Below, one piece after another: positions 1 through 53,071 of a DNA stretch of 63,694 nt (its first letter is position 1; every line of letters starts with the position of its first letter). Made by a program: the position numbers and the translations under genes. The DNA comes from an uncultured Gammaproteobacteria bacterium (lineage in GTDB: Bacteria > Patescibacteriota > Microgenomatia > UBA12405): assembly GCA_964537905.1 (NCBI GenBank), contig CAZICU010000002.1, positions 1 through 63,694 on the forward strand. Direction: 5' to 3'. Under the pieces are notes generated by a model. It saw nothing but the letters and a program-made list of their open reading frames with translations. It made no database searches and had not been told where the DNA came from.

Positions 1-105
1 CGACGTAGCCTTGCGAAGGCGGGCCATTAGACTTTTTGTTAAGTATCTTTTGTTGACCGTCTGGGACAACGTTGGAACTTTCTTAAAAAAATAACAAAAT
101 ATAAA

Positions 106-5445: not shown

Positions 5446-6567
5446 ATGTCATTAAATAGCAAAATAAAAGTTTCCCTTTTTAAGGGAAAAACCGGTTTAT
5501 CCGAAAAGGGTTTAGACATTCCAATCATCGCTCTCTCTCCTATGGATGGCATTACTGACGAAGCTTTTCGTTTGGTTCAGACCAAAATTGCTAAACCCGA
5601 TTTAATTTTTACTGAATTTGTTAGCGCTGAAGGTATTTCTCGCGGCGGCATCAAACTATACGATACTCTTTTATTTTCTTCCGAAGAACGTCCTATTATT
5701 GGTCAATTATTTGGTAAAGATCCTAACAGTTTTTACAAATCAGCCATTATCTTATCTGAACTTGGTTTTGATGGTATTGATATTAATATGGGTTGTCCCG
5801 CCAAAACCGTCACTCAACACGGCAGCGGTGCTGCTCTAATTAGTAAATCTGAATTGGCCGTTCAAATTATTCAATCTGCTAAGCAGGGGATTGATGATTG
5901 GTTTTCGGGTAAAGTCACAATTACTAACCTTGGTCTTAATCAAAAAACTTTAGATGTTATTAAACATAATCAAAATTATTCAAAGTTAAATTTTCCCTTT
6001 TTAAGGGAAAAACCTGAGCGAAGCGAAGGAAAGGGTTTAAAACCAACTCTCTCCGTCAAAACTCGTCTCGGTACCTCCGAACCAATTATTGAAACCTGGA
6101 TTCCAATTTTGTTAGCCCAACCAATTGATTTTTTAACTATTCATGGTCGAACTCTCAAACAAGCCTACGCTGGTCAAGCTGATTGGAGTGAAATTCAAAA
6201 AGTTGTTAATTTAGCCAAAGGTACGGGTATAAAAATATTTGGCAATGGTGATATTCAAAATCGTCAGCAAGGAATTGAATACTGTCAAAAGTATGGGGTT
6301 GATGGGGTACTAATCGGTCGTGCCGCTGGTGGTAATCCTTGGGTCTTTAATGATCATGTTGCCACACCACAAGAAAAATTTTCGGCTATGTTACTTCACG
6401 CTCAAATCTTTCAAGAAGTTTTTTGCAACCGCTGTTTTGATAGTCTTCGCAAACATTTTTTGCTTTATACTTCTGATTTTCCTAATGCAAAGTCACTCAG
6501 AATGAAACTTGTTAGATTAAACTCAGTCAAAGAACTTTTGTCCCTTGAAGATCAATTTCAAGATTGA
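5446..6567 (+). CDS. dus: tRNA-dihydrouridine synthase
   Basis: Carries the Dus family motifs PMDGITDEAFR, DINMGCPA, SVKTRLG and IHGRT. It contains two in-frame copies of a hairpin repeat (see the repeat features at 5471 and 5991). Confidence 0.85.
   Translation: MSLNSKIKVSLFKGKTGLSEKGLDIPIIALSPMDGITDEAFRLVQTKIAKPDLIFTEFVSAEGISRGGIKLYDTLLFSSEERPIIGQLFGKDPNSFYKSAIILSELGFDGIDINMGCPAKTVTQHGSGAALISKSELAVQIIQSAKQGIDDWFSGKVTITNLGLNQKTLDVIKHNQNYSKLNFPFLREKPERSEGKGLKPTLSVKTRLGTSEPIIETWIPILLAQPIDFLTIHGRTLKQAYAGQADWSEIQKVVNLAKGTGIKIFGNGDIQNRQQGIEYCQKYGVDGVLIGRAAGGNPWVFNDHVATPQEKFSAMLLHAQIFQEVFCNRCFDSLRKHFLLYTSDFPNAKSLRMKLVRLNSVKELLSLEDQFQD
5471..5513 (+). repeat. G/C-rich hairpin repeat, copy inside the dus 5' end (in frame)
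   Basis: The hairpin TTTCCC-TTTTTAA-GGGAAA carries the tail aaccggtttatccgaaaagggttt. The 23-mer tttccctttttaagggaaaaacc is identical to that of the copy at 5992. Confidence 0.7.
5991..6038 (+). repeat. G/C-rich hairpin repeat, copy inside mid-dus (in frame)
   Basis: The sequence is ttttccctttttaagggaaaaacctgagcgaagcgaaggaaagggttt. It translates as FPFLREKPERSEGKGL within a long insertion that precedes the conserved SVKTRLG strand. Confidence 0.7.
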
Positions 6568-7312: not shown

Positions 7313-8386
7313 ATGGATTTAAATCAACTCAAAACTTTTTTAGATTCTCAAAATCTTCCGCCGTTTCGTTTCCGCCAAATTGTTAAGAATTATTTTTCTG
7401 GTCGTTACTCTAATTTTGATCAGATGACTGATTTGTCCAAGGATTTACGTGCCAAACTTTCCCAAAAATTTTTTCTCTTGTCTGTTTCCGAAACAAAAAC
7501 TATCGGTGATAATTCAGTTCAAAAAACTCTCCTAAAATTATCTGATGGTCAATCAATTGAAACTGTTCTTATGGATTATGAAGATTGGATCACTGCTTGT
7601 GTCTCTTCCCAAGTTGGTTGTGCTCTTAATTGTCAATTTTGTGCCACTGGCAAAATGGGTTTCCAACGCAATTTAACTACTGACGAAATTATTGACCAGA
7701 TTTTATTTTGGAAAAATCATTTAAATTATAAAAATAATTCTCCCCGTCCTGTTAAGGGAGATGGAGGGTGTAGTTCCTCCCCTTGTCAAAGGGGAATGAG
7801 GGGATTTTTGGGAGGGTTTAGAGTCGTTTTCATGGGTATGGGTGAACCATTTTTAAATTGGGATAACTTGCTGGCCGCTCTTGAAATTATTAATTCACCT
7901 AGTGGTCTTAATATTGGTGCTCGCAAAATTAGTATTTCTACTGCTGGCATTGCTGATAAAATTATTGAATTTACTAATTTAGACACTCAAATTAATCTCG
8001 CTGTTTCTCTTCATTCTGCCAATCAAAAATATCGTGAGTCAATTATGCCTATTGCTCGGCAATATAATCTCGACGAACTCAAAAAATCTTGTTTGTATTA
8101 TGTCAATCACACCAACCGTCAATTATTTTTTGAATATGCTTTAACTAACCAAAATACTTCTCCAACGGACGCCAAATTATTAGCTGATTTTCTTCATTCT
8201 CATCGTTTATTTTTTCTTAATCTTATTCCTCTCAATCCGGTTGATGACGGTCTTATTCCCGCTACCAAAGATCAACAAAAACTTTTTATGAATTATCTCA
8301 ATCAATACAGAGTTGAATATTCTCTCCGAAAATCTTTTGGTCAATCTTATTCCGCTGCCTGTGGCCAACTCGTTACTAACAAATAA
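7313..8386 (+). CDS. rlmN: 23S rRNA/tRNA (adenine-C2)-methyltransferase RlmN (radical SAM)
   Basis: Carries the CALNCQFCATG radical-SAM cluster, the MGMGEPF motif and a C-terminal SAACGQL. An in-frame repeat-derived insertion lies at residues ~143-169. Confidence 0.9.
   Translation: MDLNQLKTFLDSQNLPPFRFRQIVKNYFSGRYSNFDQMTDLSKDLRAKLSQKFFLLSVSETKTIGDNSVQKTLLKLSDGQSIETVLMDYEDWITACVSSQVGCALNCQFCATGKMGFQRNLTTDEIIDQILFWKNHLNYKNNSPRPVKGDGGCSSSPCQRGMRGFLGGFRVVFMGMGEPFLNWDNLLAALEIINSPSGLNIGARKISISTAGIADKIIEFTNLDTQINLAVSLHSANQKYRESIMPIARQYNLDELKKSCLYYVNHTNRQLFFEYALTNQNTSPTDAKLLADFLHSHRLFFLNLIPLNPVDDGLIPATKDQQKLFMNYLNQYRVEYSLRKSFGQSYSAACGQLVTNK
7739..7820 (+). repeat. Two tandem G/C-rich hairpin repeat modules inserted in frame in rlmN
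   Basis: The first module is tctccccgtcctgttaagggagatggagggtg (CTCCC/GGGAG hairpin). The second is cctccccttgtcaaaggggaatgaggggatttttgggagggttt (CCCCTTGTCAAAGGGG hairpin). The same motifs occur at 17776, 20604 and 28100. Confidence 0.7.
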
Positions 8387-11696: not shown

Positions 11697-11738
11697 TACC
11701 ATAATTATATCTGACAATCTGAATAGCTGATAGGCTGA

Positions 11739-12653
11739 CTAGCTTTCAATTTCTCTTTCTGGCCAATGTTTATCAATTTCTACTATCAATTCCAAAAAAA
11801 TTTTTCGTTCGGTCATTAGTTCTAATTCTTTGCGAGCATTATAGCCAATTTCTTTAATTTTTTTACCCCCTCGGCCAATAATCATTTTTTTATATCTTTC
11901 AGCTGTAGTTAAAATTACTGCCCTAATTACCAACATTTTTCTTTTGTCAGTAATTGAATCGACTCGGACATCTACCGAATAAGGAACTTCTTCTCTCAAA
12001 AACAAATAAGCTTTTTCTCGAATAATTTCTTGGACATAATCTTTTGAATTCATTCCCATCTTTGGCTTATTCCCGTTATCCATAATTTTTATATTATATT
12101 CAGTTTCTTTATTGATTTTTGCTGGTAATAATTCAAAAATCAAATTAATTAATCCTTTAATATTTTTATCTTTAATCGCACTTACACTGATTACCTTATC
12201 AAATTCATCTTCCAAATAGTTATATTCTGGTAAATGATCTTTTGAACCAGTAGCAATATCTATTTTGTTATAAACCAAAATTTTTTTTGCTTTTACTTTT
12301 CTCACCAAACCAATCACTTTATTTTCTTCTTCATTTTTAGGTCGAGAAATATCTACCAAGCATAAAATTACATCTGCCTGATTTAATTCTTTTGGTGCTT
12401 CCTGATTAATTCTTTTTCCCATTAAATCATCCACTTTGGCAATAATCCCTGGTGTATCACTAAATATAATTTGACCTCTATCGTCACTATAAACCACCCG
12501 ACTATTTTTTCGGGTTGTTTGGGGAAGGGGTGAAGTAATGGCTACTTTTTGCGACATGATCGCATTCAGTAGGCTCGATTTGCCAGTATTTGGCCGACCC
12601 ACCAATACTACCCTTCCAATTTTTGGTTTAATTACTTCAATTATTTTTTGCAT
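11739..12653 (-). CDS. era: GTPase Era
   Basis: The G1 motif is GRPNTGKSS and the G3 motif is DTPG. The C-terminal KH domain reads IGRGGKKIKEIG. Confidence 0.9.
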   Translation of the reverse strand: MQKIIEVIKPKIGRVVLVGRPNTGKSSLLNAIMSQKVAITSPLPQTTRKNSRVVYSDDRGQIIFSDTPGIIAKVDDLMGKRINQEAPKELNQADVILCLVDISRPKNEEENKVIGLVRKVKAKKILVYNKIDIATGSKDHLPEYNYLEDEFDKVISVSAIKDKNIKGLINLIFELLPAKINKETEYNIKIMDNGNKPKMGMNSKDYVQEIIREKAYLFLREEVPYSVDVRVDSITDKRKMLVIRAVILTTAERYKKMIIGRGGKKIKEIGYNARKELELMTERKIFLELIVEIDKHWPEREIES

Positions 12654-17423: not shown

Positions 17424-17775
17424 CTGGTAAATCTTGATCTGGAATCAATAAACTCACTATTTCGGTAAGCACCCCTTGGCCATCCGTAGCTTCAGCGGAG
17501 GAGGCAAAAATCATTGCTTCTGATAATTCACCCATAATTTTTCTCGGAATTATATTGGTAACAAATACAGTTTTTTTACCAATCAAATCAGTAGGGGAAT
17601 ACCACTTTTTTATTCCTGAAAATACTGTTCTCAAATTTTCTTCACCAAAATCCACTTGCAGTCTCAGTAATTTTTCCGACCCTTCAACTTCTATGGCTTC
17701 TTTTATCTCACCAATCAAAAATTCTACTTTGGCAAAATCATCATATTTAATTTGATCCATAGCCAATTTTATCAT
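17404..17775 (-). CDS. tRNA-binding domain protein (CsaA/EMAP/MetG C-terminal type)
   Basis: The OB-fold signature reads KLLRLQVDFGEENLRTVFSGIKKWY..LIGKKTVFVTNI. The ATG at 17775 is preferred. The track start TTG 17790 lies inside a repeat element. Confidence 0.7.
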   Translation of the reverse strand: MIKLAMDQIKYDDFAKVEFLIGEIKEAIEVEGSEKLLRLQVDFGEENLRTVFSGIKKWYSPTDLIGKKTVFVTNIIPRKIMGELSEAMIFASSAEATDGQGVLTEIVSLLIPDQDLPVGSKVF

Positions 17776-17814
17776 CCCCCTCCTTGTCAAGGGAGGGGTC
17801 AGGGGTGGGTTTTT
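17776..17814 (-). repeat. G/C-rich hairpin repeat immediately upstream of the tRNA-binding protein gene
   Basis: The plus strand reads ccccctccttgtcaagggaggggtcaggggtgggttttt. On the gene strand this reads ..CCCCTCCCTTGACAAGGAGGGGG-ATG. It is the same family as 28100, 20604 and 7775. Confidence 0.7.
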
Positions 17815-17875
17815 GTGTTATTATTAGCTTACCCAGCCTATTATTAATTATTAATTTTTAATTCTTAATTAAATT

Positions 17876-20476: not shown

Positions 20477-20486
20477 ATATAAAAAG

Positions 20487-20536
20487 GCTCCCTTTCATCA
20501 AGGGGAGCTGTCGAACGAAGTGAGACTGAGGGGTTT
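20487..20536 (+). repeat. G/C-rich hairpin repeat (two-hairpin type)
   Basis: The hairpin GCTCCC-tttcatcaa-GGGGAGC is followed by tgtcgaacgaagtgagactgaggggttt. It is related to the copies at 26631 and 31805. Confidence 0.65.
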
Positions 20537-20571
20537 GATTAAGACGGCCAGTTCCAAATCTAAAAATCCTC

Positions 20572-20590
20572 ACCCTGCCATGGGCAGGGT
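20572..20590. repeat. Perfect 8-bp-arm palindrome
   Basis: The palindrome is ACCCTGCC-atg-GGCAGGGT, followed by an A-run. Confidence 0.6.
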
Positions 20591-20603
20591 AAAAAAAGAA
20601 TTT

Positions 20604-20633
20604 CCCTCCCCTTGGAGGGGTTAGGGGAGGGTT
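20604..20633 (+). repeat. G/C-rich hairpin repeat
   Basis: The sequence is ccctccccttggaggggttaggggagggt. It shares the CCCCT..AGGGG hairpin and the T(C/T)AGGGG(T/A)GGGT tail with 17776. Confidence 0.65.
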
Positions 20634-20642
20634 TATCTTAAC

Positions 20643-20671
20643 AAAAAAACTCCCCAATTAAGGGGAGTTTT
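20643..20671. terminator. Bidirectional rho-independent terminator between convergent genes
   Basis: The stem AAACTCCCC-aattaa-GGGGAGTTT is flanked by an A-run upstream and a T-run downstream. Confidence 0.7.
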
Positions 20672-20692
20672 AAAATTTAAATAAATTTATTT

Positions 20693-24089: not shown

Positions 24090-24149
24090 AATAATCTCAT
24101 ATAAAGGATAAAATTGTCATCTTGCGGAGTTATTTATTTTAGTGCAAAT

Positions 24150-24215
24150 AAAATTATATCAAAAAAGAAAATGTAATTATATCTATTTATTTTTGTATTC
24201 TTATAAGACTATATT
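24150..24215 (+). repeat. 66-bp exact direct repeat, copy 1 (5' flank of HNH-motif gene 1)
   Basis: The sequence aaaattatatcaaaaaagaaaatgtaattatatctatttatttttgtattcttataagactatatt is identical to 24896-24961. Confidence 0.9.
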
Positions 24216-24229
24216 AAATTAATTAATAT

Positions 24230-24709
24230 ATGTCAAAAGAAAGACAATCTCAATCAAAAGCAGGATATCACTCAAATAAAATGAGATTGTACGAAATATA
24301 CAACATAGAATATACAGATCGTAACTTTGATTGCCATCATATAGTTACTAAAAAAGACAAAAGAACCCATGTTGTTCCTTCTTATTTTAATCTTAATGAG
24401 ATTTCTAATTTACATCCTATAGATAAAAGATTACATAAATTAGTTACAAAAATCATCGAGGCATTAGATAATGGACAGGAAATAGATGTTCATGCAGAAA
24501 TTGAAAAAAAGATGAAATTAATTTCTGAAAAATCAGAAATTATCTCGAGAAAAACAGTTGAAGTTAATAATTCTGTTTATGATCATTCAAAAGAATTAAA
24601 CAATCAAGAAAAAATTGAATATATACGGTCATGTTTAGACGAAGAAAATTTAGACGAAAAGGCGTTAGCTTATTACTGTTCTGCTAGGCTCGATCTTGTC
24701 ACTAATTGA
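24230..24709 (+). CDS. Small HNH-motif protein, paralog 1
   Basis: The pattern DCHHIV..x..N(L)..P..x..H(KL) is consistent with an HNH/His-Me finger. It aligns with the ORF at 24971 along the N-terminal ~90 aa. Confidence 0.5.
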   Translation: MSKERQSQSKAGYHSNKMRLYEIYNIEYTDRNFDCHHIVTKKDKRTHVVPSYFNLNEISNLHPIDKRLHKLVTKIIEALDNGQEIDVHAEIEKKMKLISEKSEIISRKTVEVNNSVYDHSKELNNQEKIEYIRSCLDEENLDEKALAYYCSARLDLVTN

Positions 24710-24803: not shown

Positions 24804-24878
24804 TGGTGACCCTACGGAGAATCGAACTCCGATTACCAGGATGAGAACCTGACGTCCTAACCGTTAGACGATAGGGCC
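24804..24878 (-). tRNA. tRNA-Glu (anticodon CUC)
   Basis: The reverse complement reads GGCCCTA TC GTCT AACGGTTA GGAC G TCAGG TTCTCAT CCTGG TAAT CGGAG TTCGATT CTCCG TAGGGTC A CCA. It folds as a full cloverleaf. Confidence 0.9.
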
Positions 24879-24895
24879 TATTTATTGGAACAAAC

Positions 24896-24961
24896 AAAAT
24901 TATATCAAAAAAGAAAATGTAATTATATCTATTTATTTTTGTATTCTTATAAGACTATATT
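24896..24961 (+). repeat. 66-bp exact direct repeat, copy 2 (5' flank of HNH-motif gene 2, adjacent to tRNA-Glu)
   Basis: Identical to 24150-24215. On the minus strand it contains an extended -10 (TGATATAAT, 24899-24907) pointing at tRNA-Glu. Confidence 0.9.
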
Positions 24962-24970
24962 GAATAATAT

Positions 24971-25474
24971 ATGTCAAAAGAAAAACAACCTCAATTTAAA
25001 AAAAACAAATATTATAGTAATAGATTAAGAGCATTCAAAGCATATGGGATAAAAATTAATGATCCCGAATATAATTGTCACCATATAGTACAAAAAACTG
25101 ATTTAGAACAAGGATTAGTTCCGCATTATTTTGATATTGATGGTTTACCTAATTTATTTCCTATAAGGATAGATCAGCATGAACTACTTAACAAAATTAT
25201 TTATGCAGTAGATAATGATCAGGATATTAGTTGTTACTTAGATGAATGGAAAAAATTAGAAACAGATTCAAAAAAACCAAAAGTTGTTTCTAAAAAAACA
25301 ATTAATCATAAAACTATTATTCCAATACCACCAACCATTGATTTAACAAAAAAAAGTAAAAAAAAGCCAGAAAAACATCGTCAATCAATATTAGAAAAAT
25401 TAATCGATAAAGAAGCAGATGAATATTTGTCTTATTATCAATCTTCACTTAGAACTAATCTTGCCGAAATATAG
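24971..25474 (+). CDS. Small HNH-motif protein, paralog 2
   Basis: Carries NCHHIV..N..P..H. It shares the MSKE(R/K)Q start, the VP.YF motif and the KII.A.DN.Q motif with the ORF at 24230. Confidence 0.5.
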   Translation: MSKEKQPQFKKNKYYSNRLRAFKAYGIKINDPEYNCHHIVQKTDLEQGLVPHYFDIDGLPNLFPIRIDQHELLNKIIYAVDNDQDISCYLDEWKKLETDSKKPKVVSKKTINHKTIIPIPPTIDLTKKSKKKPEKHRQSILEKLIDKEADEYLSYYQSSLRTNLAEI

Positions 25475-25487
25475 TAAAATCAATTAA

Positions 25488-26624
25488 ATGGTATTTAAAA
25501 AATATAAAAACTATTTAAAACTAGTTTTATTAACTATATTTTCTTCATTTTTTTTCTGGCTGATTTTTTATTTTAATGTTCCCGGCAAAATTGGATTTAA
25601 TCATGTTTCTCTAGAAACTATTTTTGCTAATTACGATGGTCCTAATTATATGATTATTGCCAAATGTGGTTACAACAAAGATTGTATTGGTCCAAATTTT
25701 TCTTTACCTTTACCCTTAGAATATTATCCAGCTCATTTTCCTGGATATCCTCTTTTGATTAATTTTTTCAACAATTTTACTACTGGACCCAAAGCCATGC
25801 TTTTAGTCACTCTTTCTGGTTCTATTTTTTTAACTCTAATTTTATACGAATTTTTAAAACTATTTATAAAAGAAAAAAAAGCCTTTTGGCTAACAGTTTT
25901 ATTTATATTTTTTCCAGCTCGTTTTTTTGTTTTACGTTCTATTGGTGCTCCGGAAACTTGGTTTTTAGCTAGTATTATTGCTTCAATTTTCTTTTTCAAA
26001 AAAGATAAAATTTGGTTCTCTGCTATTTTTGCTGCTCTAGCTCAAACATTTAAAACCCCAGCCGTATTATTGGTTTTTTCTTATGCTCTTGTCGCTATTT
26101 ATGAATTAATTAAAACCAAGAAATTTTTACCTATTATAAAAAAATACTATCCCTATCTTTTAACTCCAATTACAATTTTATTAATCTTTTATCTTTATTA
26201 TCTTCAAACTGGAAATTTATTGGCCTATTTTCAAAGCGGGGATAATTTTCACTTAAATTACTTACCCTATTTAGTTTTTATTAGTACTAAATCATGGGTT
26301 GATAGTATTTGGCTCGAAGATATTATTTATATTTTTATTATCGCTATTTATGGTATTTATCGGCTTGTCAAAAAATATAAATTTGACATTGTTGTTATTT
26401 TTCCACTAGTCTTTACTCTGGCTACTCTTTTAGTAGCTCATCGCGATATTAGTCGTTATATTTCTCCTGTTTATCCATTTTTATTACTTGCCTTTCAAAA
26501 ATTTCTCAACAAAAAATCTATTAAATTCATCTTTTTGCTTTTATTACCCGCTATTATTCTTTATGGTATCAATTTTGTTTCTGGCAATACTACTCCTATT
26601 TCCGACTGGACCAATTATCTGTAA
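25488..26624 (+). CDS. Polytopic membrane protein, probable GT-C glycosyltransferase (PIG-V/GT39-like)
   Basis: Has about 10 predicted TM segments. The motif YPAHFPGYPLLI resembles the FFPLYP motif of PIG-V-like mannosyltransferases. Confidence 0.55.
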   Translation: MVFKKYKNYLKLVLLTIFSSFFFWLIFYFNVPGKIGFNHVSLETIFANYDGPNYMIIAKCGYNKDCIGPNFSLPLPLEYYPAHFPGYPLLINFFNNFTTGPKAMLLVTLSGSIFLTLILYEFLKLFIKEKKAFWLTVLFIFFPARFFVLRSIGAPETWFLASIIASIFFFKKDKIWFSAIFAALAQTFKTPAVLLVFSYALVAIYELIKTKKFLPIIKKYYPYLLTPITILLIFYLYYLQTGNLLAYFQSGDNFHLNYLPYLVFISTKSWVDSIWLEDIIYIFIIAIYGIYRLVKKYKFDIVVIFPLVFTLATLLVAHRDISRYISPVYPFLLLAFQKFLNKKSIKFIFLLLLPAIILYGINFVSGNTTPISDWTNYL

Positions 26625-26630
26625 ATACGA

Positions 26631-26678
26631 CTTCTCCATTTTTTAAGGGGAGATGTCCCGAAGGGACAGAGAGGTTTT
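26631..26678 (+). repeat. G/C-rich hairpin repeat (two-hairpin type)
   Basis: The sequence is cttctccattttttaaggggagatgtcccgaagggacagagaggtttt. Its first 27 nt differ at one position from the copy at 31805. Confidence 0.7.
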
Positions 26679-26722
26679 GTCTTAAATTATGTTTTCGTTT
26701 ATGACCGAAGGCCGGGTGGGTT

Positions 26723-28099: not shown

Positions 28100-28133
28100 C
28101 TTCCCCTCTTGTCAAAGAGGGGATTGAGGGGAG
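28100..28133 (-). repeat. G/C-rich hairpin repeat between comM and yraN
   Basis: The plus strand reads cttcccctcttgtcaaagaggggattgaggggag. On the gene strand this is CCCCTCTTTGACAAGAGGGG, ending ~12 nt upstream of the yraN ATG. Confidence 0.7.
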
Positions 28134-28141
28134 ATTGTTAT

Positions 28142-29750: not shown

Positions 29751-31772
29751 ATGTCATTTAGTCTTCAATCCGAATACCAACCCTCAGGTGATCAACCTCA
29801 GGCAATTGCCAAACTTTCGGACAATATTATCTCTGGTGTTAAGCATCAAACCTTGCTCGGTGTTACCGGTTCTGGTAAGACTTTTACAGTTGCTAATGTC
29901 ATCCAAAATACTCAACTTCCAACTTTAGTAATTTCTCACAACAAAACTCTCGCCGGCCAACTTTATCAAGAGTTTAAAGAATTATTCCCTAACAACAAAG
30001 TTTCTTATTTTGTTTCTTACTATGATTATTACCAACCAGAAGCTTATATTCCCGCCTCGGACACTTATATTGCCAAAGAAGTTGATATCAATGATCGGAT
30101 TGATCGTCTTCGGTTAGAAGCTTCATCCAATCTTTTGTCGGGTGATGATAATATTGTCGTCGCTTCTGTCAGTTGTATTTACAACATTGGCGATCCAGTC
30201 GAATTTGAAAACATGACATTTTCTTTAGAAATAAATCATGAATATCCTCGTCGCCAACTTTTAGAAAGTTTTATTTCTCTTTTTTACACTCGTTCAGAAC
30301 TAGAATTCAAACGTTCCACTTTTCGGATTCGTGGTGGTAATATTGAAATCTGGCCATCTTATACTGATTCTTATTTAGTCCTAGAATTTTTAGGTGATAT
30401 GTTGACCAAAATTATTCAACGTCACCCTATGACCAGTAAGGAAGTTGTTTTAGAAAAGTTCAAACTTTTCCCCGCCAAACAATACGTCAGTGGCCATCGT
30501 GATCTTGATAAAATCTTTACCCAAATTCGTTCTGATTGTGACAAACAAGTTGCTATGTTTAAATCTCAAAATAAAATTCTTGAAGCTCACCGCATTCAGC
30601 AACGAGTCGAATACGATTTAGAAATGCTTCAAGAAACTGGTTATATCAACGGTATCGAAAATTATTCTATTTATTTTGATCAAAACCGAAAGCATGGCGA
30701 TCCTCCTTATACTTTAGTCGATTATTTTCGCCACTTATGGGGTGATAATTTTTTGACTGTTATTGACGAATCTCACGTTAGTGTTCCTCAAATTGGTGGT
30801 ATGTTTGCCGGTGATTTGGCTCGTAAAAAAAATTTAATTGATTTTGGTTTTCGTCTTCCATCAGCTCTTGATAATCGTCCTTTAAAATTTGACGAATTTG
30901 AACAGCGTCTGGCTAAAGTTATTTATGTTTCCGCCACTCCTTCAAAATATGAATTAGAGAAAAGTTCTAGCACATTATCACACCAGAGCACTAACTCTGG
31001 TATTGTCGAACAAATTATTCGTCCTACTGGTTTAGTCGATCCAGAAATTAGTATCCGATCTACCCTTAATCAAATTCCTAATTTAATCGAAGAAATAAAA
31101 TCTCGTGTTGCTAAAAAAGAACGAACATTAGTCGTTACTCTTACCAAACGTATGGCTGAAGATTTGGCGAATTTCCTTTCTGATCCAAATAAGACAGGTA
31201 CTAATTTAAAAGTTGCTTATCTTCATTCTGATATTGACACTCTTGAACGTTCAAAAATTCTCGATGATTTACGTTCCGGTAATTACGATGTTTTAGTTGG
31301 TATCAATTTATTACGTGAAGGTCTTGATTTACCCGAAGTCAGTTTAGTCGCTATTCTTGATGCTGATCAACAAGGATTCTTACGTTCAAAATCTTCACTC
31401 ATTCAAATCATGGGTCGAGCTTCACGTCATATTGCCGGTCAAGTTATTTTGTATGCCGATTCAGTTTCTGATGCTATGGATGGTGCTATCCGTGAAGTTA
31501 ATCGACGACGCCTTATTCAAGTTAAATACAATCAAGACCATAATATTACCCCTAGATCAGTGGTAAAATCTATCCGTCCTCAAATTCTTGAGGATCTCAA
31601 AAAAGATCCCAAAACTGATTGGGTTAAAATTGATACTTCATCACTTACTCCACCTCAGCGACAACGTCAAATTAAAGAACTCAAAAAACAAATGAGACAT
31701 TTGGCTTTTAATTTAGACTTTGAAAGAGCTATTCAAATTCGTGATCAAATCCGCGAAATTGAAAAATATTAA
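29751..31772 (+). CDS. uvrB: Excinuclease ABC subunit B
   Basis: Carries the Walker A motif GVTGSGKT, helicase motifs (DESH) and a C-terminal UVR domain (LDFERAIQIRDQIREIE). Confidence 0.95.
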   Translation: MSFSLQSEYQPSGDQPQAIAKLSDNIISGVKHQTLLGVTGSGKTFTVANVIQNTQLPTLVISHNKTLAGQLYQEFKELFPNNKVSYFVSYYDYYQPEAYIPASDTYIAKEVDINDRIDRLRLEASSNLLSGDDNIVVASVSCIYNIGDPVEFENMTFSLEINHEYPRRQLLESFISLFYTRSELEFKRSTFRIRGGNIEIWPSYTDSYLVLEFLGDMLTKIIQRHPMTSKEVVLEKFKLFPAKQYVSGHRDLDKIFTQIRSDCDKQVAMFKSQNKILEAHRIQQRVEYDLEMLQETGYINGIENYSIYFDQNRKHGDPPYTLVDYFRHLWGDNFLTVIDESHVSVPQIGGMFAGDLARKKNLIDFGFRLPSALDNRPLKFDEFEQRLAKVIYVSATPSKYELEKSSSTLSHQSTNSGIVEQIIRPTGLVDPEISIRSTLNQIPNLIEEIKSRVAKKERTLVVTLTKRMAEDLANFLSDPNKTGTNLKVAYLHSDIDTLERSKILDDLRSGNYDVLVGINLLREGLDLPEVSLVAILDADQQGFLRSKSSLIQIMGRASRHIAGQVILYADSVSDAMDGAIREVNRRRLIQVKYNQDHNITPRSVVKSIRPQILEDLKKDPKTDWVKIDTSSLTPPQRQRQIKELKKQMRHLAFNLDFERAIQIRDQIREIEKY

Positions 31773-31804
31773 AATATGAAATTCAAAAAATTACAAATTA
31801 AAGA

Positions 31805-31856
31805 CTTCTCCCTTTTTTAAGGGGAGATGTCGAAGCGAAGCAAGACAAAGAGGTTT
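31805..31856 (+). repeat. G/C-rich hairpin repeat between uvrB and uvrA
   Basis: The sequence is cttctcccttttttaaggggagatgtcgaagcgaagcaagacaaagaggttt. It ends 5 nt before the uvrA ATG. Confidence 0.7.
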
Positions 31857-31861
31857 TTCCT

Positions 31862-34534
31862 ATGTTAGATAAAATTATCGTCAAAGGAGCTCGAGAAAAT
31901 AATTTAAAAAATGTTTTCTTTGAGTTCCCTAAAAATAAACTCGTCGTGTTTACCGGTGTTTCTGGCTCCGGTAAATCTTCTATGGCTTTTGATACTCTTT
32001 TTGCCGAAAGTCAGCGTCGTTACGTAGAGAGCTTGTCTAGCTATGCTCGCCAATTTTTAGGCAACATGAAACGCCCTGAAGTTGATTTTATTGATGGTCT
32101 TTCTCCCTCTATTGCTATCAATCAAAAAGCTATTTCTCATAATCCTCGATCTACTGTCGGTACTGTTACCGAAATTTACGATTATCTTCGTTTGCTTTTT
32201 GCTCGGATTGGTCATCCTCATTGTCCCGAATGTGGTCGCGAAGTTTCTCCTCAGACAAGTCGCCAGATTGTCACCCAAATTTTAGATAATGCCTCAGGTC
32301 AAATATCAGCTTTAAATCTCTATCGATTTTTAGTTTTATCTCCCATTATTCGTGATAAAAAAGGTGACTTTAAAGGTCTTATTGAGAATTTAAAAAAGCA
32401 AGGTTATAAATGGATTCGCGTTGACAATCAAATCATCGATTTATATTCTGATTTCGGTATTGCCAAAACTAATAAACACAATATTGATGCCGTCATTGAT
32501 CGTGTTTCTATTAGTAAAGATAATCTCAAAGACATTAAATCAATTTATGATCGTCTTATTGATGATATTGAACAAGCCATGAAATTAGCCAATGGTTTGG
32601 TAATTACTGCTCAAATCACTGATACAGGATTTGATTTTCCCGACAATCCCAAAGATTTTATTGACACTTTATTTTCCGAAAATTTTGCCTGTCCTAACTG
32701 TAATATTTCACTTCCAGAAATCGAACCCCGTTTATTTTCTTTCAATTCTCCCCAAGGTGCTTGTCTTGAATGCAAAGGTCTTGGATCAAAATATCAGGTT
32801 GATCGATCAAAATTTCCCGAATGGCGGGCCAAAATGATGGAAAGTCGTTATGCTTCAGTTTCTTCTGATGCTATTCGTGAAGAACTCGAAAAATTTATGA
32901 TCAAAAGTGAATGCACTACTTGTCACGGTGCTCGTCTCAATCAAGACGCTCTTTCTATCCATATTTTAGGTCAAAATATTTATCAAATCACTCAATTACC
33001 CATCGAAAAATTAAATAGTTGGCTAAACCATCTTGATTCAGTCTTAACTAGCGACAAAGAAAAAGAAATTGTCACTCCTATCAAAAAAGAATTAGCCGCT
33101 CGAATTGAATTTTTGTTAGCTGTTGGTCTTGATTATTTAAGTCTCGATCGTGAAGCGGGTACTTTGTCTAGCGGTGAATCACAACGAATTCGTTTGGCTA
33201 GTCAAATTGGAACTGGTTTAACCGGTGTTCTTTATGTTCTCGATGAACCCACCATCGGTCTTCATTCTCGTGATAATGATCGTTTAATCGCTACTCTTCA
33301 AAAACTCAAAGATTTAGGTAACTCTTTAGTCGTCGTTGAACATGATGAAGATGTTATAAAATCTGCCGATTATATCGTTGATTTTGGTCTATATGCGGGC
33401 AAACACGGTGGTGAAATTATCGCTCAAGGTAGTCTTGATGATATAAAAAAGAATAAAGACTCTTTAACTGGTAAATATTTATCGGGTAAATTACAAATTA
33501 AAAATAATCTTGATTCAAATATAATTAATCCTGATTACAAAATCTCAATTAAAGGTGCCAGTCAATGGAATCTCAAACATGTTGATGTTGATTTTCCTTT
33601 AAATAAATTAATTTGTGTCACTGGTGTTTCTGGGTCAGGTAAGTCAACTTTGGTTCACGACACTCTTTATGGTGGTGTTCGCCAAGCTACTCTTGGAAGT
33701 TATTATGGTTTTATTGGTAAGTATGATGAAATTAAAGGTGCCGACAATGTTACTGATGTTTTATTAGTCGATCAGTCTCCCATCGGTCGCACTCCTCGCA
33801 GTAATCCGGCCACTTACACCAAAATTTTTGATGACATCCGCAAACTTATGGCTCAAACTATCGAAGCTCAAATTCGTGGTTTTAGTGCTGACAGATTTTC
33901 TTTTAATGCCAAAACCGGTCGTTGTCCTATTTGCCAAGGTCAAGGTCAAATCAAAATTGAAATGCAATTTTTACCCGATATTTATGTCACTTGTGATGAA
34001 TGTCATGGTACTCGATACAAAGAAGAAACTTTAGAAGTCGAATATAAAGGCAAAAATATTGCTCAAATTCTCAAAATGACTATTGATGAAGCTAGTGAAT
34101 TTTTCAAAAATATCCCCAAGCTAAAACGCATGTTGACCACTATTCAAGATGTTGGTTTGGGTTATTTAGAATTAGGTCAGCCATCCAATACTTTATCAGG
34201 AGGGGAATCACAACGTCTCAAAATTAGCCGGGAATTAGTTAAATTAGGTCGTGGCAAAATGCTTTATATTCTCGACGAACCAACCACTGGTTTACATTTT
34301 TATGATGTTGATAAATTAATTACTGTCTTACGAAAATTAGTTGATAAAGGTAATACTGTGGTGGTTATTGAACACAATCTTGATGTTATTAAAAATGCTG
34401 ATTGGATTATTGATATGGGTCCTGAAGGTGGTGATAAAGGTGGGGAATTAGTTGTCGCTGGTACCGTCAAAGATGTCATCAATTGTGATCGTTCTTACAC
34501 CGGCCAATACCTCAAAAAGAACATTTCTCCCTAA
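31862..34534 (+). CDS. uvrA: Excinuclease ABC subunit A
   Basis: Has two ABC modules (GVSGSGKSS / GVSGSGKST, and LSGGESQR twice) and Zn-finger Cys pairs (CPECG, CPNC..CLEC, CPICQG..CDEC). Confidence 0.95.
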   Translation: MLDKIIVKGARENNLKNVFFEFPKNKLVVFTGVSGSGKSSMAFDTLFAESQRRYVESLSSYARQFLGNMKRPEVDFIDGLSPSIAINQKAISHNPRSTVGTVTEIYDYLRLLFARIGHPHCPECGREVSPQTSRQIVTQILDNASGQISALNLYRFLVLSPIIRDKKGDFKGLIENLKKQGYKWIRVDNQIIDLYSDFGIAKTNKHNIDAVIDRVSISKDNLKDIKSIYDRLIDDIEQAMKLANGLVITAQITDTGFDFPDNPKDFIDTLFSENFACPNCNISLPEIEPRLFSFNSPQGACLECKGLGSKYQVDRSKFPEWRAKMMESRYASVSSDAIREELEKFMIKSECTTCHGARLNQDALSIHILGQNIYQITQLPIEKLNSWLNHLDSVLTSDKEKEIVTPIKKELAARIEFLLAVGLDYLSLDREAGTLSSGESQRIRLASQIGTGLTGVLYVLDEPTIGLHSRDNDRLIATLQKLKDLGNSLVVVEHDEDVIKSADYIVDFGLYAGKHGGEIIAQGSLDDIKKNKDSLTGKYLSGKLQIKNNLDSNIINPDYKISIKGASQWNLKHVDVDFPLNKLICVTGVSGSGKSTLVHDTLYGGVRQATLGSYYGFIGKYDEIKGADNVTDVLLVDQSPIGRTPRSNPATYTKIFDDIRKLMAQTIEAQIRGFSADRFSFNAKTGRCPICQGQGQIKIEMQFLPDIYVTCDECHGTRYKEETLEVEYKGKNIAQILKMTIDEASEFFKNIPKLKRMLTTIQDVGLGYLELGQPSNTLSGGESQRLKISRELVKLGRGKMLYILDEPTTGLHFYDVDKLITVLRKLVDKGNTVVVIEHNLDVIKNADWIIDMGPEGGDKGGELVVAGTVKDVINCDRSYTGQYLKKNISP

Positions 34535-50520: not shown

Positions 50521-52627
<2,107 letters not shown>

Positions 52628-52633
52628 TAATTC

Positions 52634-53071
52634 ATGGACTGTATTTTTTGCAAAATTATTAAAGGCGAAATTCCCTGTCATAAAGTTTATGAAGACGATA
52701 ATTTTTTAGCTTTTCTTGATATTAATCCAACTTCTCTTGGTCACACTCTTTTAATCCCCAAAATTCACTATCGTTGGGTTTATGATGTTCCTAATTTTGG
52801 TGAATATTGGCTAGTCGCTCAAAAAATAGCTCTAAATATTAAAAATTCGCCTTTAAATCCAGAATATATTAGTTTTCTTACCATGGGCAATGAAGTTCCC
52901 CACGCCCATATTCATATCATTCCTCGCTCATTAACCGATTCTATTCAACCAGTTCTTGGCAGTATTCCTCATCTCAAAATAACCAATGAAGACTTTGTAA
53001 AAATAGCCTTAACAATTAAAACTTCTAAATTTTCACCAGATAAATCAAACACGTCAGTCAAAAATACCTAA
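52634..53071 (+). CDS. HIT family protein
   Basis: Has the histidine triad HAHIHIIP and an N-terminal CIFCKI motif. Confidence 0.85.
   Translation: MDCIFCKIIKGEIPCHKVYEDDNFLAFLDINPTSLGHTLLIPKIHYRWVYDVPNFGEYWLVAQKIALNIKNSPLNPEYISFLTMGNEVPHAHIHIIPRSLTDSIQPVLGSIPHLKITNEDFVKIALTIKTSKFSPDKSNTSVKNT

Follow-up and report, generated by a model that had tools for sequence, protein, structure and literature searches.

The 63.7-kb window analyzed here (the whole stretch of 63,694 nucleotides (nt) of contig CAZICU010000002.1) contains a gene of a tRNA-dihydrouridine synthase (Dus) in which one and the same 23-mer, TTTCCCTTTTTAAGGGAAAAACC, occurs exactly twice, both times on the + strand, at positions 5471-5493 and 5992-6014, the chance expectation being 0.01. 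Quite probably, these 23-mers are the hairpin parts of a dispersed DNA repeat of ~45-55 nt, which has the layout of an intrastrand triplex, is tolerated in frame inside protein-coding genes and may spread via copying during replication or repair. The pair had been pointed out, at exactly these positions, in an earlier note on this DNA, which likened it to the Rickettsia palindromic elements (RPEs). No further match to the 23-mer was found in the window, even with three mismatches allowed. The gene and its two repeat copies are as follows.

5446..6567, + strand: tRNA-dihydrouridine synthase (Dus) gene, host of the two repeat copies; 373 amino acids (aa); Pfam PF01207, E=2.3e-53
5466..5516, + strand: repeat copy 1 (TTTCCC subfamily), long form; encodes V9-L23 of the N-terminal extension
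5991..6039, + strand: repeat copy 2 (TTTCCC subfamily), long form; encodes F183-L198 in the loop before the strand SVKTRLG

The two repeat copies in the dus gene

The open reading frame (ORF) 5446-6567 matches, in addition to the Pfam family, solved Dus structures (PDB chains), e.g., 1VHN, and the motifs NMGCPAKTV, SVKTRLG and TIHGRT (catalytic, flavin mononucleotide-binding) are invariant across the ortholog alignment A1. By its closest Dus proteins (70-88% identity; homolog search, 7684 homologs) the window belongs to Candidatus Shapirobacteria of the candidate phyla radiation (CPR; Patescibacteria). Metagenome-assembled genomes (MAGs) such as CAZLCB (loci L001 and L045), CAYRYK (L005 and L084) and similar ones possess a Shapirobacteria-type Dus (86-88% identical) and the gene order of the window; the titles “uncultured Gammaproteobacteria bacterium” borne by these MAGs are evidently wrong.

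Copy 1 is composed of a pyrimidine (Y) arm (5471-5478), a loop (5479-5481), a purine (R) arm (5482-5489), a hairpin-like linker (5492-5503) and a mirror tail (5504-5513); its edges were set by sharp conservation boundaries in comparison with loci L142 and L134, and it passes the strict Y-R-R' test. The corresponding blocks of copy 2 are the Y arm 5991-5999, the loop 6000-6002, the R arm 6003-6011, the linker 6012-6029 (with GCGAAGC) and the mirror tail 6030-6038. Both copies fit the three-block rule (AAGGGAAA with AAAGGGTT), and each hairpin is followed by the G-rich tail that the earlier note had described (AAAGGGTTT). Although identical, the 23-mers do not share a reading frame: gTT TCC CTT gives VSLFKGKT, and TTT CCC TTT gives FPFLREKP. 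The peptides spanning the repeats are VSLFKGKTGLSEK and LNFPFLREKPER. Tried as members of the canonical family of the repeat (see below), the dus copies scored only E~1 with the canonical hidden Markov model (HMM), and they represent a diverged TTTCCC subfamily instead.

A stop codon directly abuts the ATG 5446 of dus on its upstream side, and there is no in-frame ATG, GTG or TTG between copy 1 and the conserved SPMDG motif, in agreement with the initial claim that copy 1 is part of an N-terminal extension with no later in-frame start. Copy 1 is therefore translated if strand beta-1 of the barrel is made. As for copy 2, its position in a long insertion just before SVKTRLG was likewise correctly recognized; the insertion as a whole is not repeat-derived, however, since of its ~49 extra residues relative to 1VHN the repeat encodes only the last 16-17 (183-198), the rest being conserved clade-wide. 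A segment of ~30 aa, WFSGKVKITDLGLNQKTLDVIKRNQKYS (aa ~152-180, two short helices), is conserved in all Shapirobacteria Dus and absent from 1VHN; it is not repeat-derived, and its C-terminal edge borders on the hot spot of the repeats.

A structure predicted with AlphaFold from the alignment of orthologs had a mean predicted local distance difference test score (pLDDT) of 76 and a predicted template modeling score (pTM) of 0.81. Only four of its segments had pLDDT <50, among them residues 1-22 (copy 1 corresponds to 9-23) and 182-195 (copy 2 corresponds to 183-198), and the structure mapping proposed at the outset thus places the inserts in a low-confidence loop and at the N-terminus. Copy 2 is situated in the model between the helix 166-178 and the strand 201-206, i.e., in an alpha-beta loop. 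By established barrel topology, such loops of TIM barrels are on the other side from the catalytic strand ends. The places of insertion in dus are, consequently, the N-terminus and an alpha-beta loop facing away from the active site, where the insert would be translated as a short, disordered and functionless peptide.

The conservation of the two copies is seen at the level of nucleotides. Copy 1 is identical to orthologous N-terminal copies at 44-47 of 48 nt, and copy 2 to those of L132, L138 and L139 at 48-49 of 51 nt. Elements of the same subfamily at the same site are 94-98% identical, as compared to ~80% in the rest of the gene and ~57% at its 4-fold degenerate sites, and this conservation has sharp edges and includes third codon positions. 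Around dus, a contig of the same species (L003:1672-2793, Logan SRR27197511) deviates from the window only by a G-to-A replacement in the tail of copy 1, being a natural tail mutant in which the third-strand GGG is changed to GAG, giving G22S.

Lineage-specific insertions in Dus orthologs

The alignment of 31 Dus orthologs revealed a sharply bounded hypervariable stretch between “..KYS” and “KPTLSVKTRLG”, along with an optional N-terminal extension. When 113 orthologs were parsed, the loop was found to have a basal length of 12-13 aa in 32 of them, 16-17 aa in 16, and 18-33 aa with recognizable repeat-encoded peptides of several subfamilies in ~65 (peptide types SPFVKGRCPEGTERF, SPSSRGDVDLSTKGF, LPVKGGARRAEGF and FPFLREKPEQSEGKGL). 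Among the five nearest relatives of the window protein the loop state is different in each. The loop insert is common to P0002, P0016, P0023 and P0027 and absent from many close orthologs; the N-terminal dus copy was found in few orthologs only, an N-terminal insert being present in P0019, P0022 and P0023; all solved Dus structures are devoid of the inserts. In their DNA, the inserts of L005, L006 and L007 correspond in kind to the intergenic repeats of the window. Since the loop states are so variable and the DNA matches intergenic repeats, the inserts are to be regarded as lineage-specific, recurrent and repeat-derived and not as an ancestral feature of the protein, which is what the ortholog alignment suggested in the earlier note was expected to demonstrate. 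Together with this mosaic of presence and absence, the 94-98% identity of the elements suggests that copying or conversion is under way or that the nucleotide sequence is strongly selected, and it does not fit passive decay.

A second family of peptides at the same loop, VETHHDASL, is encoded by a GTAG...CTAC palindrome, GTAGAGACGCATCATGATGCGTCTCTAC, detected in the Dus loop of L004 (10496-10523), L009, L045, L046, L127, L129, L134, L135 and L142. It is unrelated to the element under study, has REP-like ends (REP, repetitive extragenic palindrome), and is dispersed in relatives and absent from the window.

Two further candidates in Dus were discarded. The “basal” allele of L001 was considered as a clean empty site; it has 10 nt, AAAGACTTCT, in common with the element's left end, and no exact junction could be drawn. 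Elements hidden out of frame at the N-terminus of those Dus homologs whose annotation starts at MDGITDE turned out to be mis-called genes with a TTG start: in P0080 (L144:1456-1503) an in-frame TTG 45 nt upstream of MDGITDE restores the normal N-terminus MINFITKHPIIALSPMDG, and 12 other Dus homologs are mis-called likewise.

Architecture of the element

The element of ~45-55 nt consists, in this order, of a pyrimidine arm, a loop, a complementary purine arm, a linker, a second purine arm and a T run (for instance, pyrimidine arm TCTCCCCTT, loop of 3-8 nt, purine arm AAGGGGAGA and second purine block AGAGGGGTT). Its canonical family was collected with the pattern TCTCC N6-10 AAGGGGAGATG N10-28 ARRGGTTTT, scanned in contigs representing one genome per species. 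The canonical census given throughout refers to the matches listed, comprising at least 119 loci with 130 copies. The lengths of the linker are bimodal, namely 3-5 nt (short form) and 11-25 nt (long form). In the long form the linker is itself a perfect hypervariable hairpin, represented by 91 distinct sequences and 62 stem-and-loop combinations in the 130 listed copies and forming on average 5.8 consecutive base pairs from its ends versus 1.6 in shuffled sequences.

The hairpin and the tail by which the repeat was initially described are both present; the tail also mirrors the purine arm of the hairpin, and the element is thus more than a hairpin with a tail. In 24 of the 35 asymmetric purine cores left free by the search pattern a perfect mirror match was found downstream, the direct register giving 13 matches and the upstream controls 6 and 4. 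The ratio of mirror to direct instances amounted to 30/7 for GGGAGA, 7/1 for both GGAGGGG and GGGGGAG, and 5/0 for both GAGGGGGA and GAGGGG. Where the purine arm has an internal A, the opposing base of the tail is A in 48 cases, T in 29, C in 2 and G in none. The triads are those of the antiparallel purine motif rule, i.e., G.G-C, A.A-T and T.A-T. By its predicted pairing, the layout is that of a class II (purine-motif) intrastrand DNA triplex motif and not of a simple palindrome. As the mirror block is unable to form Watson-Crick pairs with the pyrimidine arm in place of the purine arm, an attenuator based on an alternative hairpin is excluded.

Copies across the window

Ten copies were detected in the window by regular-expression, HMM and structure-based scans, four of them coding (dus and rlmN) and six intergenic; all are on the C-rich + strand, GC skew being negative along the whole window. 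The strict three-block count was 5, as against 0.2 expected from Markov simulations. The intergenic repeats reported initially near 20487, 26631 and 31805 are real, their starts being at 20488, 26630 and 31804 (canonical HMM, E=9e-8 to 3e-13). The copies outside dus are the following.

7738-7769 and 7774-7820 (short form), + strand: two tandem copies, in frame in the RlmN-like radical-SAM gene 7313-8386; peptide SPRPVKGDGGCSSSPCQRGMRGFLGGF
17775..17815, + strand: short-form copy between divergent genes; CCCCTCC / GGAGGGG / TCA / GGGGTGG + TTTTT
20488..20538, + strand: long-form canonical copy, 11 nt past the stop codon of an M29 peptidase gene; nhmmer E=9e-8
20602..20636, + strand: atypical short copy in the same spacer as the 20488 copy; CCCTCCCC TT GGAGGGG TTA GGGGAGGG TTT
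26630..26680, + strand: long-form canonical copy just past the stop codon of ORF 25488-26624; nhmmer E=3e-13
28101..28136, + strand: short-form copy between two minus-strand genes, antisense to both; CCCCTCTT / AAGAGGGG / linker / GGGGAGAT
31804..31858, + strand: long-form canonical copy between uvrB (29751-31772) and uvrA (31862-34534); nhmmer E=3.1e-13

The ORF 7313-8386 matches Pfam RlmN_N and Radical_SAM, and its insert immediately precedes the GMGEP motif. Five syntenic relatives lack the insert and have NQKIYPQFVG at this place. In the copy 17775 the third block mirrors the purine arm with T in place of A, and in the RNA fold of the copy 20602 the Y arm is paired with the distal block. 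The frame-1 translation of the copy 26630, SPFFKGRCPEGTERF, resembles the Dus-loop insert of other Shapirobacteria and reproduces that of P0008 almost exactly (L006 was also compared).

Several neighboring structures were recorded as well. The 216-nt spacer 20477-20692 contains three GC-rich structures, namely the copy 20488, the hairpin CCCTGCC-ATG-GGCAGGG at 20573-20591 and the copy 20602, and a further hairpin, CTCCCC-TTAATT-GGGGAG with a T run, is found on the minus strand at ~20640-20667. About 20 nt past the copy 26630, at 26697-26722, there is a partial element, comprising the hairpin GACCGAAGGCC and the tail GGGTGGGTTTT without the first hairpin. A tandem array of 14-15-nt units (ACTTTCTACTTTAT-like) occupies 52511-52628, between the ORFs 51491-52510 and 52634-53071. 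A 75-nt direct repeat, 97% identical in its two copies (24145-24219 and 24891-24965), flanks tRNA-Glu (24804-24878), each copy being just upstream of a small ORF (24230-24709 and 24971-25474). The spacing between the genes of NAD synthase and a GTPase (MMR_HSR1/KH_2) is only ~20-35 nt in the window (11717-11739) and in L007; a stretch of 0.8-1.1 kb with no called gene occurs there in L001 (16091-16872), L004 (16107-17252) and L005 (16144-17057). The split nadE of L001 was examined as a possible effect of the element; this was rejected, the junction carrying no element.

Distribution of the repeat in other genomes

The motif was found in other genes and in intergenic DNA of the window, and also in many other genomes. 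Many hosts of the canonical family are Shapirobacteria; Woese-, Peri-, Parcu-, Falkow- and Saccharibacteria are also represented, and copies residing on long contigs were found in Bacteroidota, Synergistota, Chlorobiota, Cloacimonadota, Cyanobacteria, Margulisbacteria and a Firmicute. Copy density differs greatly among syntenic relatives. Four canonical copies in tandem with a period of ~100 nt, each within a repeated spacer of ~56 nt, were observed in a Bacteroidetes MAG (L097:1599-1940; JACAAZ010000019).

Inside ORFs of at least 150 aa there are 40 of the 130 canonical copies (31%), 21 in sense and 19 in antisense orientation, and the orientation of the intergenic copies is independent of the neighboring genes. 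Ten ORFs with copies were tested and all ten proved to be real genes, encoding a TraG-like ATPase, UvrD/AddA, an ATP-grasp enzyme, a Mur ligase (in a Synergistaceae MAG), Rho, PFOR, UvrB (in a Saccharibacterium), the CCA enzyme and two O-antigen ligases. With respect to local GC skew the orientation is biased, 81 versus 35 among 116 listed copies from other genomes.

The TTTCCC subfamily was found at 17 metagenome loci, which include the Dus N-terminus and the Dus loop of other species, several intergenic sites, the C-terminus of an unrelated protein of ~150 aa and the N-terminus of a LAGLIDADG-like ORF. The occurrence of TTTCCC copies at sites outside dus identifies the dus copies as members of a dispersed subfamily and not products of local duplication. 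The last-mentioned ORF is a putative homing endonuclease with the LAGLIDADG-like motif LAGFVDGEGSF, the copy (L137:1941-1962) forming its N-terminus (LSLFKGKT).

Mode of spread and alternative explanations

From the distribution and orientation of the copies it follows that the element acts at the DNA level, in either orientation, in spacers and genes of compact CPR genomes, and that it persists in genes only where the frame is kept, no stop codon is introduced and the site is a permissive loop or terminus. The RPE-like reading, in which a dispersed structured repeat colonizes coding genes of a reduced genome and is tolerated at permissive sites, is supported as far as the behavior of the family is concerned; the family is not confined to the lineage of its host, being also present in many CPR lineages and other phyla. 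The “selfish” or “invading” character of the repeat is suggested by the patterns of presence and absence. Its recurrence in many genes and genomes makes it a real case of structured “junk” DNA tolerated as protein. As to the mechanism, the purine-rich strand, when single-stranded during replication or repair, could fold; the folded structure could stall synthesis; and gap repair or template switching might then copy in, convert or delete elements, with other copies as donors. Such repair-based copying would account for the absence of target-site duplications, the hot spot and turnover at one loop, the replacement of subfamilies and the homogeneity of copies. A bolder proposal, which we consider possible at best, is that the element is a functional triple helix of single-stranded DNA, the fold of which is selected across phyla and drives transposase-independent copying in and out, so that essential CPR genes are colonized; the pattern behind it is that pyrimidine arm, purine arm and mirror third strand change in concert, in combination with the structured linker.

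A different agent of dispersal would be an enzyme acting in trans on a non-autonomous transposon, either a transposable element of the miniature inverted-repeat type (MITE) or a REP/REPIN-like unit, the hairpin being recognized by, e.g., an HUH/Y1 transposase of the RAYT type or of the IS200/IS605 type. This explanation appears rather doubtful to us, although members of the family are scattered in both orientations and fall into subfamilies, its strand bias versus GC skew fits, the REP-like GTAG...CTAC palindrome occupies the same Dus loop in relatives, and the lack of target-site duplications is compatible with single-strand HUH transposition. The same lack, combined with that of terminal inverted repeats (the inverted repeat is internal, and no outer stem or outer inverted repeat was found in the flanks), speaks against a DDE-type MITE; the 5' end has no conserved GTAG, the flank logo before TCTCC being A-(C/T)-T; the copies are not inverted doublets, and no RAYT gene was seen in the repeat loci; no gene family is linked to the copies in the 119 listed loci; 2.9 million viral contigs contained no copy, and plasmids gave chance-level matches only, none of them significant; finally, a model with the hairpin only leaves the mirror third block unexplained. 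The element could instead be a DNA motif beneficial to the host and kept by selection (for uptake or recognition, as a pause site of replication or recombination, or as a hot spot of plasticity), the coding copies being needed for density. Nucleotide conservation far above that of synonymous sites, conserved blocks common to several phyla, covariation of all three blocks and the strand bias against GC skew are in line with this view, and an adaptive role of triplex motifs in instability has been speculated upon (Holder et al.; PMC4666352). It is nevertheless improbable, given that about one third of Dus orthologs have no insert, that close orthologs have different subfamilies at one site, that the copies have no consistent position relative to genes, that their density is very unequal among syntenic relatives, and that no function has been tied to the PIT/TM elements of E. 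coli (PMC4666352).

The chances of an RNA-level element (a terminator, an attenuator, a riboswitch-like switch or a hairpin stabilizing mRNA, with a regulatory role in dus) are slight. GC-rich hairpins followed by a T run, the location of three window copies directly past stop codons and predicted RNA folds of moderate stability might be taken for its signs; yet the copies are oriented without regard to the flanking genes, those within genes are antisense in half of the cases, the window copy 28101 is antisense to both neighbors, and the z-scores of the folds are weak (-0.7 to -2.3). Moreover, the distal block is a mirror and not a direct copy, so it does not compete for Watson-Crick pairing with the pyrimidine arm, and purine-motif triplexes are reported not to form in RNA (PMC4666352). 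Rfam searches with gathering thresholds revealed two tRNAs only in the window, and in seven loci searched at E<=1 a single weak match to whalefall-1 (E=0.1). The terminator/attenuator candidate was rejected on the grounds of orientation, antisense copies and the mirror block. Least credible of all is a genuine selected feature of the Dus protein (a linker or an interaction peptide) or a simple intragenic duplication with coincidental resemblance to the repeat. In its favor are the preserved frame and the presence of the insert in several species; however, one 23-mer gives unrelated peptides in two frames, the same nucleotide element resides in intergenic DNA and unrelated genes, the inserts are missing from many close orthologs and all solved structures, conservation is at the nucleotide level with third codon positions included, and the segments are disordered in the model.

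Several points weigh against a triplex-like repeat that is tolerated in frame and copied by repair. The high conservation of the elements could reflect selection for a host function instead of copying between sites. No clean pair of empty and filled sites was found and no insertion event was caught, and at the Dus loop site the insertion is not clean, replacing 9-15 nt of the basal sequence. Direct repeats in the flanks did not exceed the control (3.67 versus 3.64), i.e., no target-site duplications were detected, and no ORF family recurs among the genes beside the copies, the commonest being present in 6 of the 119 listed loci. Physical folding into a triplex is suggested by covariation only; the mirror test used related, not independent, sequences, and the tail was fixed in the pattern by which the canonical set had been ascertained. 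In the dus copies, which are rich in A and have no more than three G triads, the triplex would therefore be weak. For the E. coli element TM_ECO, a triplex was formed in vitro and was not detected in vivo, according to PMC4666352. The translation of the repeat segments in Dus is, in its turn, predicted from the gene sequence.

Comparison with known repeat systems

The work of Hoyne et al. (2000) and of Holder et al. (2015; PMC4666352) described bacterial elements of three blocks, termed “potential intrastrand triplex” (PIT) elements, in particular BoxC/PIT/TM_ECO of E. coli. In the latter work, TM_ECO (consensus CCCTCNCCC N3-6 GGGNGAGGG N3 GGGNGAGGG) is presented as highly conserved, always intergenic, free of strand bias and of association with transposons, phages or plasmids, and associated with local genomic instability. 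Our element resembles it in carrying three arms on one strand with class II triads, the first of pyrimidines, the second of complementary purines and the third again of purines, and in being multi-copy, conserved and dispersed, with no linked transposase, phage or plasmid and with local turnover between relatives. It differs from TM_ECO in its sequence family, in its hosts (CPR and several non-proteobacterial phyla), in the 31% of listed copies lying within ORFs, where they would be translated in frame, and in its bias against GC skew; identity with TM_ECO was rejected, the consensus pattern giving 0 matches in the window and 145 loci. In terms of the loop lengths used in triplex searches (1-6 nt in ITxF; 0-10 nt in Hoyne et al.), the short-form copies 17775, 28101 and 7774 are within range; the long form (both dus copies, 20488, 26630 and 31804) exceeds it, many copies having a hairpin of 11-25 nt as the second loop, unlike the motifs searched with ITxF.

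Similarity to RPEs, as these are summarized in PMC10969869 after Ogata et al. (2000, 2002), consists in short structured repeats inserted in frame in unrelated housekeeping genes of a reduced genome and present also in intergenic DNA, with the encoded peptides placed compatibly with the fold of the protein. In-frame cases of this type are dus (two copies), rlmN and the genes of the TraG-like ATPase, UvrD/AddA, Rho, the Mur ligase, UvrB and the CCA enzyme. By the same summary, RPEs measure ~100-150 bp, are confined to Rickettsia and have one conserved peptide per family, and these descriptions set them apart from a cross-phylum element of ~50 nt read in several frames and both orientations and possessing a mirror block. 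RPEs comprise the sequence families RPE-1..10. The likeness is best treated as an analogy and would not imply homology.

With the RAYT-mobilized REP/REPIN elements (PMC3116915) our repeat shares short GC-rich hairpins, dispersal, non-autonomy and the absence of target-site duplications. Unlike our repeat, REPs are extragenic, and the 5' GTAG, inverted doublets and a flanked RAYT typical of them were not seen in the loci; a better REP analog is the separate GTAG...CTAC palindrome family of the relatives. Yeast mitochondrial GC clusters (PMC4478555) and “byp” elements are also small, GC-rich and structured, inhabit AT-rich compact genomes and have some coding copies. The GC clusters, however, are eukaryotic and organellar and have another sequence and architecture, and byps are bypassed by ribosomes and not in frame, while the present elements keep the frame open. 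The small dispersed repeats (SDRs) of heterocystous cyanobacteria, treated by Elhai et al. in 2008, are reportedly 21-27 nt long, look mobile without a transposase and lie inside genes and other repeats. We know of no triplex-type architecture reported for them.

Implications

The parent concepts, i.e., RPE-type in-frame repeats and BoxC/PIT/TM triplex motifs, are known. In the literature searched, nothing relevant was found on MITEs or in-frame palindromes of CPR/Patescibacteria or on the core sequence of the element. To judge from that literature, the combination of an in-frame repeat with a triplex motif, the form with a hairpin linker, the covariation of three strands over dozens of subfamilies, the cross-phylum distribution and the repeated use of a single Dus loop in over half of a clade appear to be new. 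Bacterial intrastrand triplex motifs have been known since 2000, and their structure and function in vivo have never been demonstrated; with dozens of subfamilies having three covarying strands, and with natural tail mutants, the question of the triplex in the cell becomes directly testable. Should the element indeed be a functional triplex, it would provide the first evolutionary, covariation-based evidence for the formation and significance of intrastrand DNA triplexes in vivo, and would represent a new class of mobile element. Blocks common to several phyla, with no phage, plasmid or transposase linkage, pose the question of how the element spreads.

In-frame colonization of essential genes by short structured repeats has been thought to be nearly peculiar to Rickettsia; in the present family it is a common feature of CPR/Patescibacteria, and other phyla have it as well. 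The fact that more than half of the Dus orthologs of one clade have a peptide of this kind at the same loop bears on annotation, ortholog alignment, phylogenomics and the acquisition of loops by proteins of minimal genomes.

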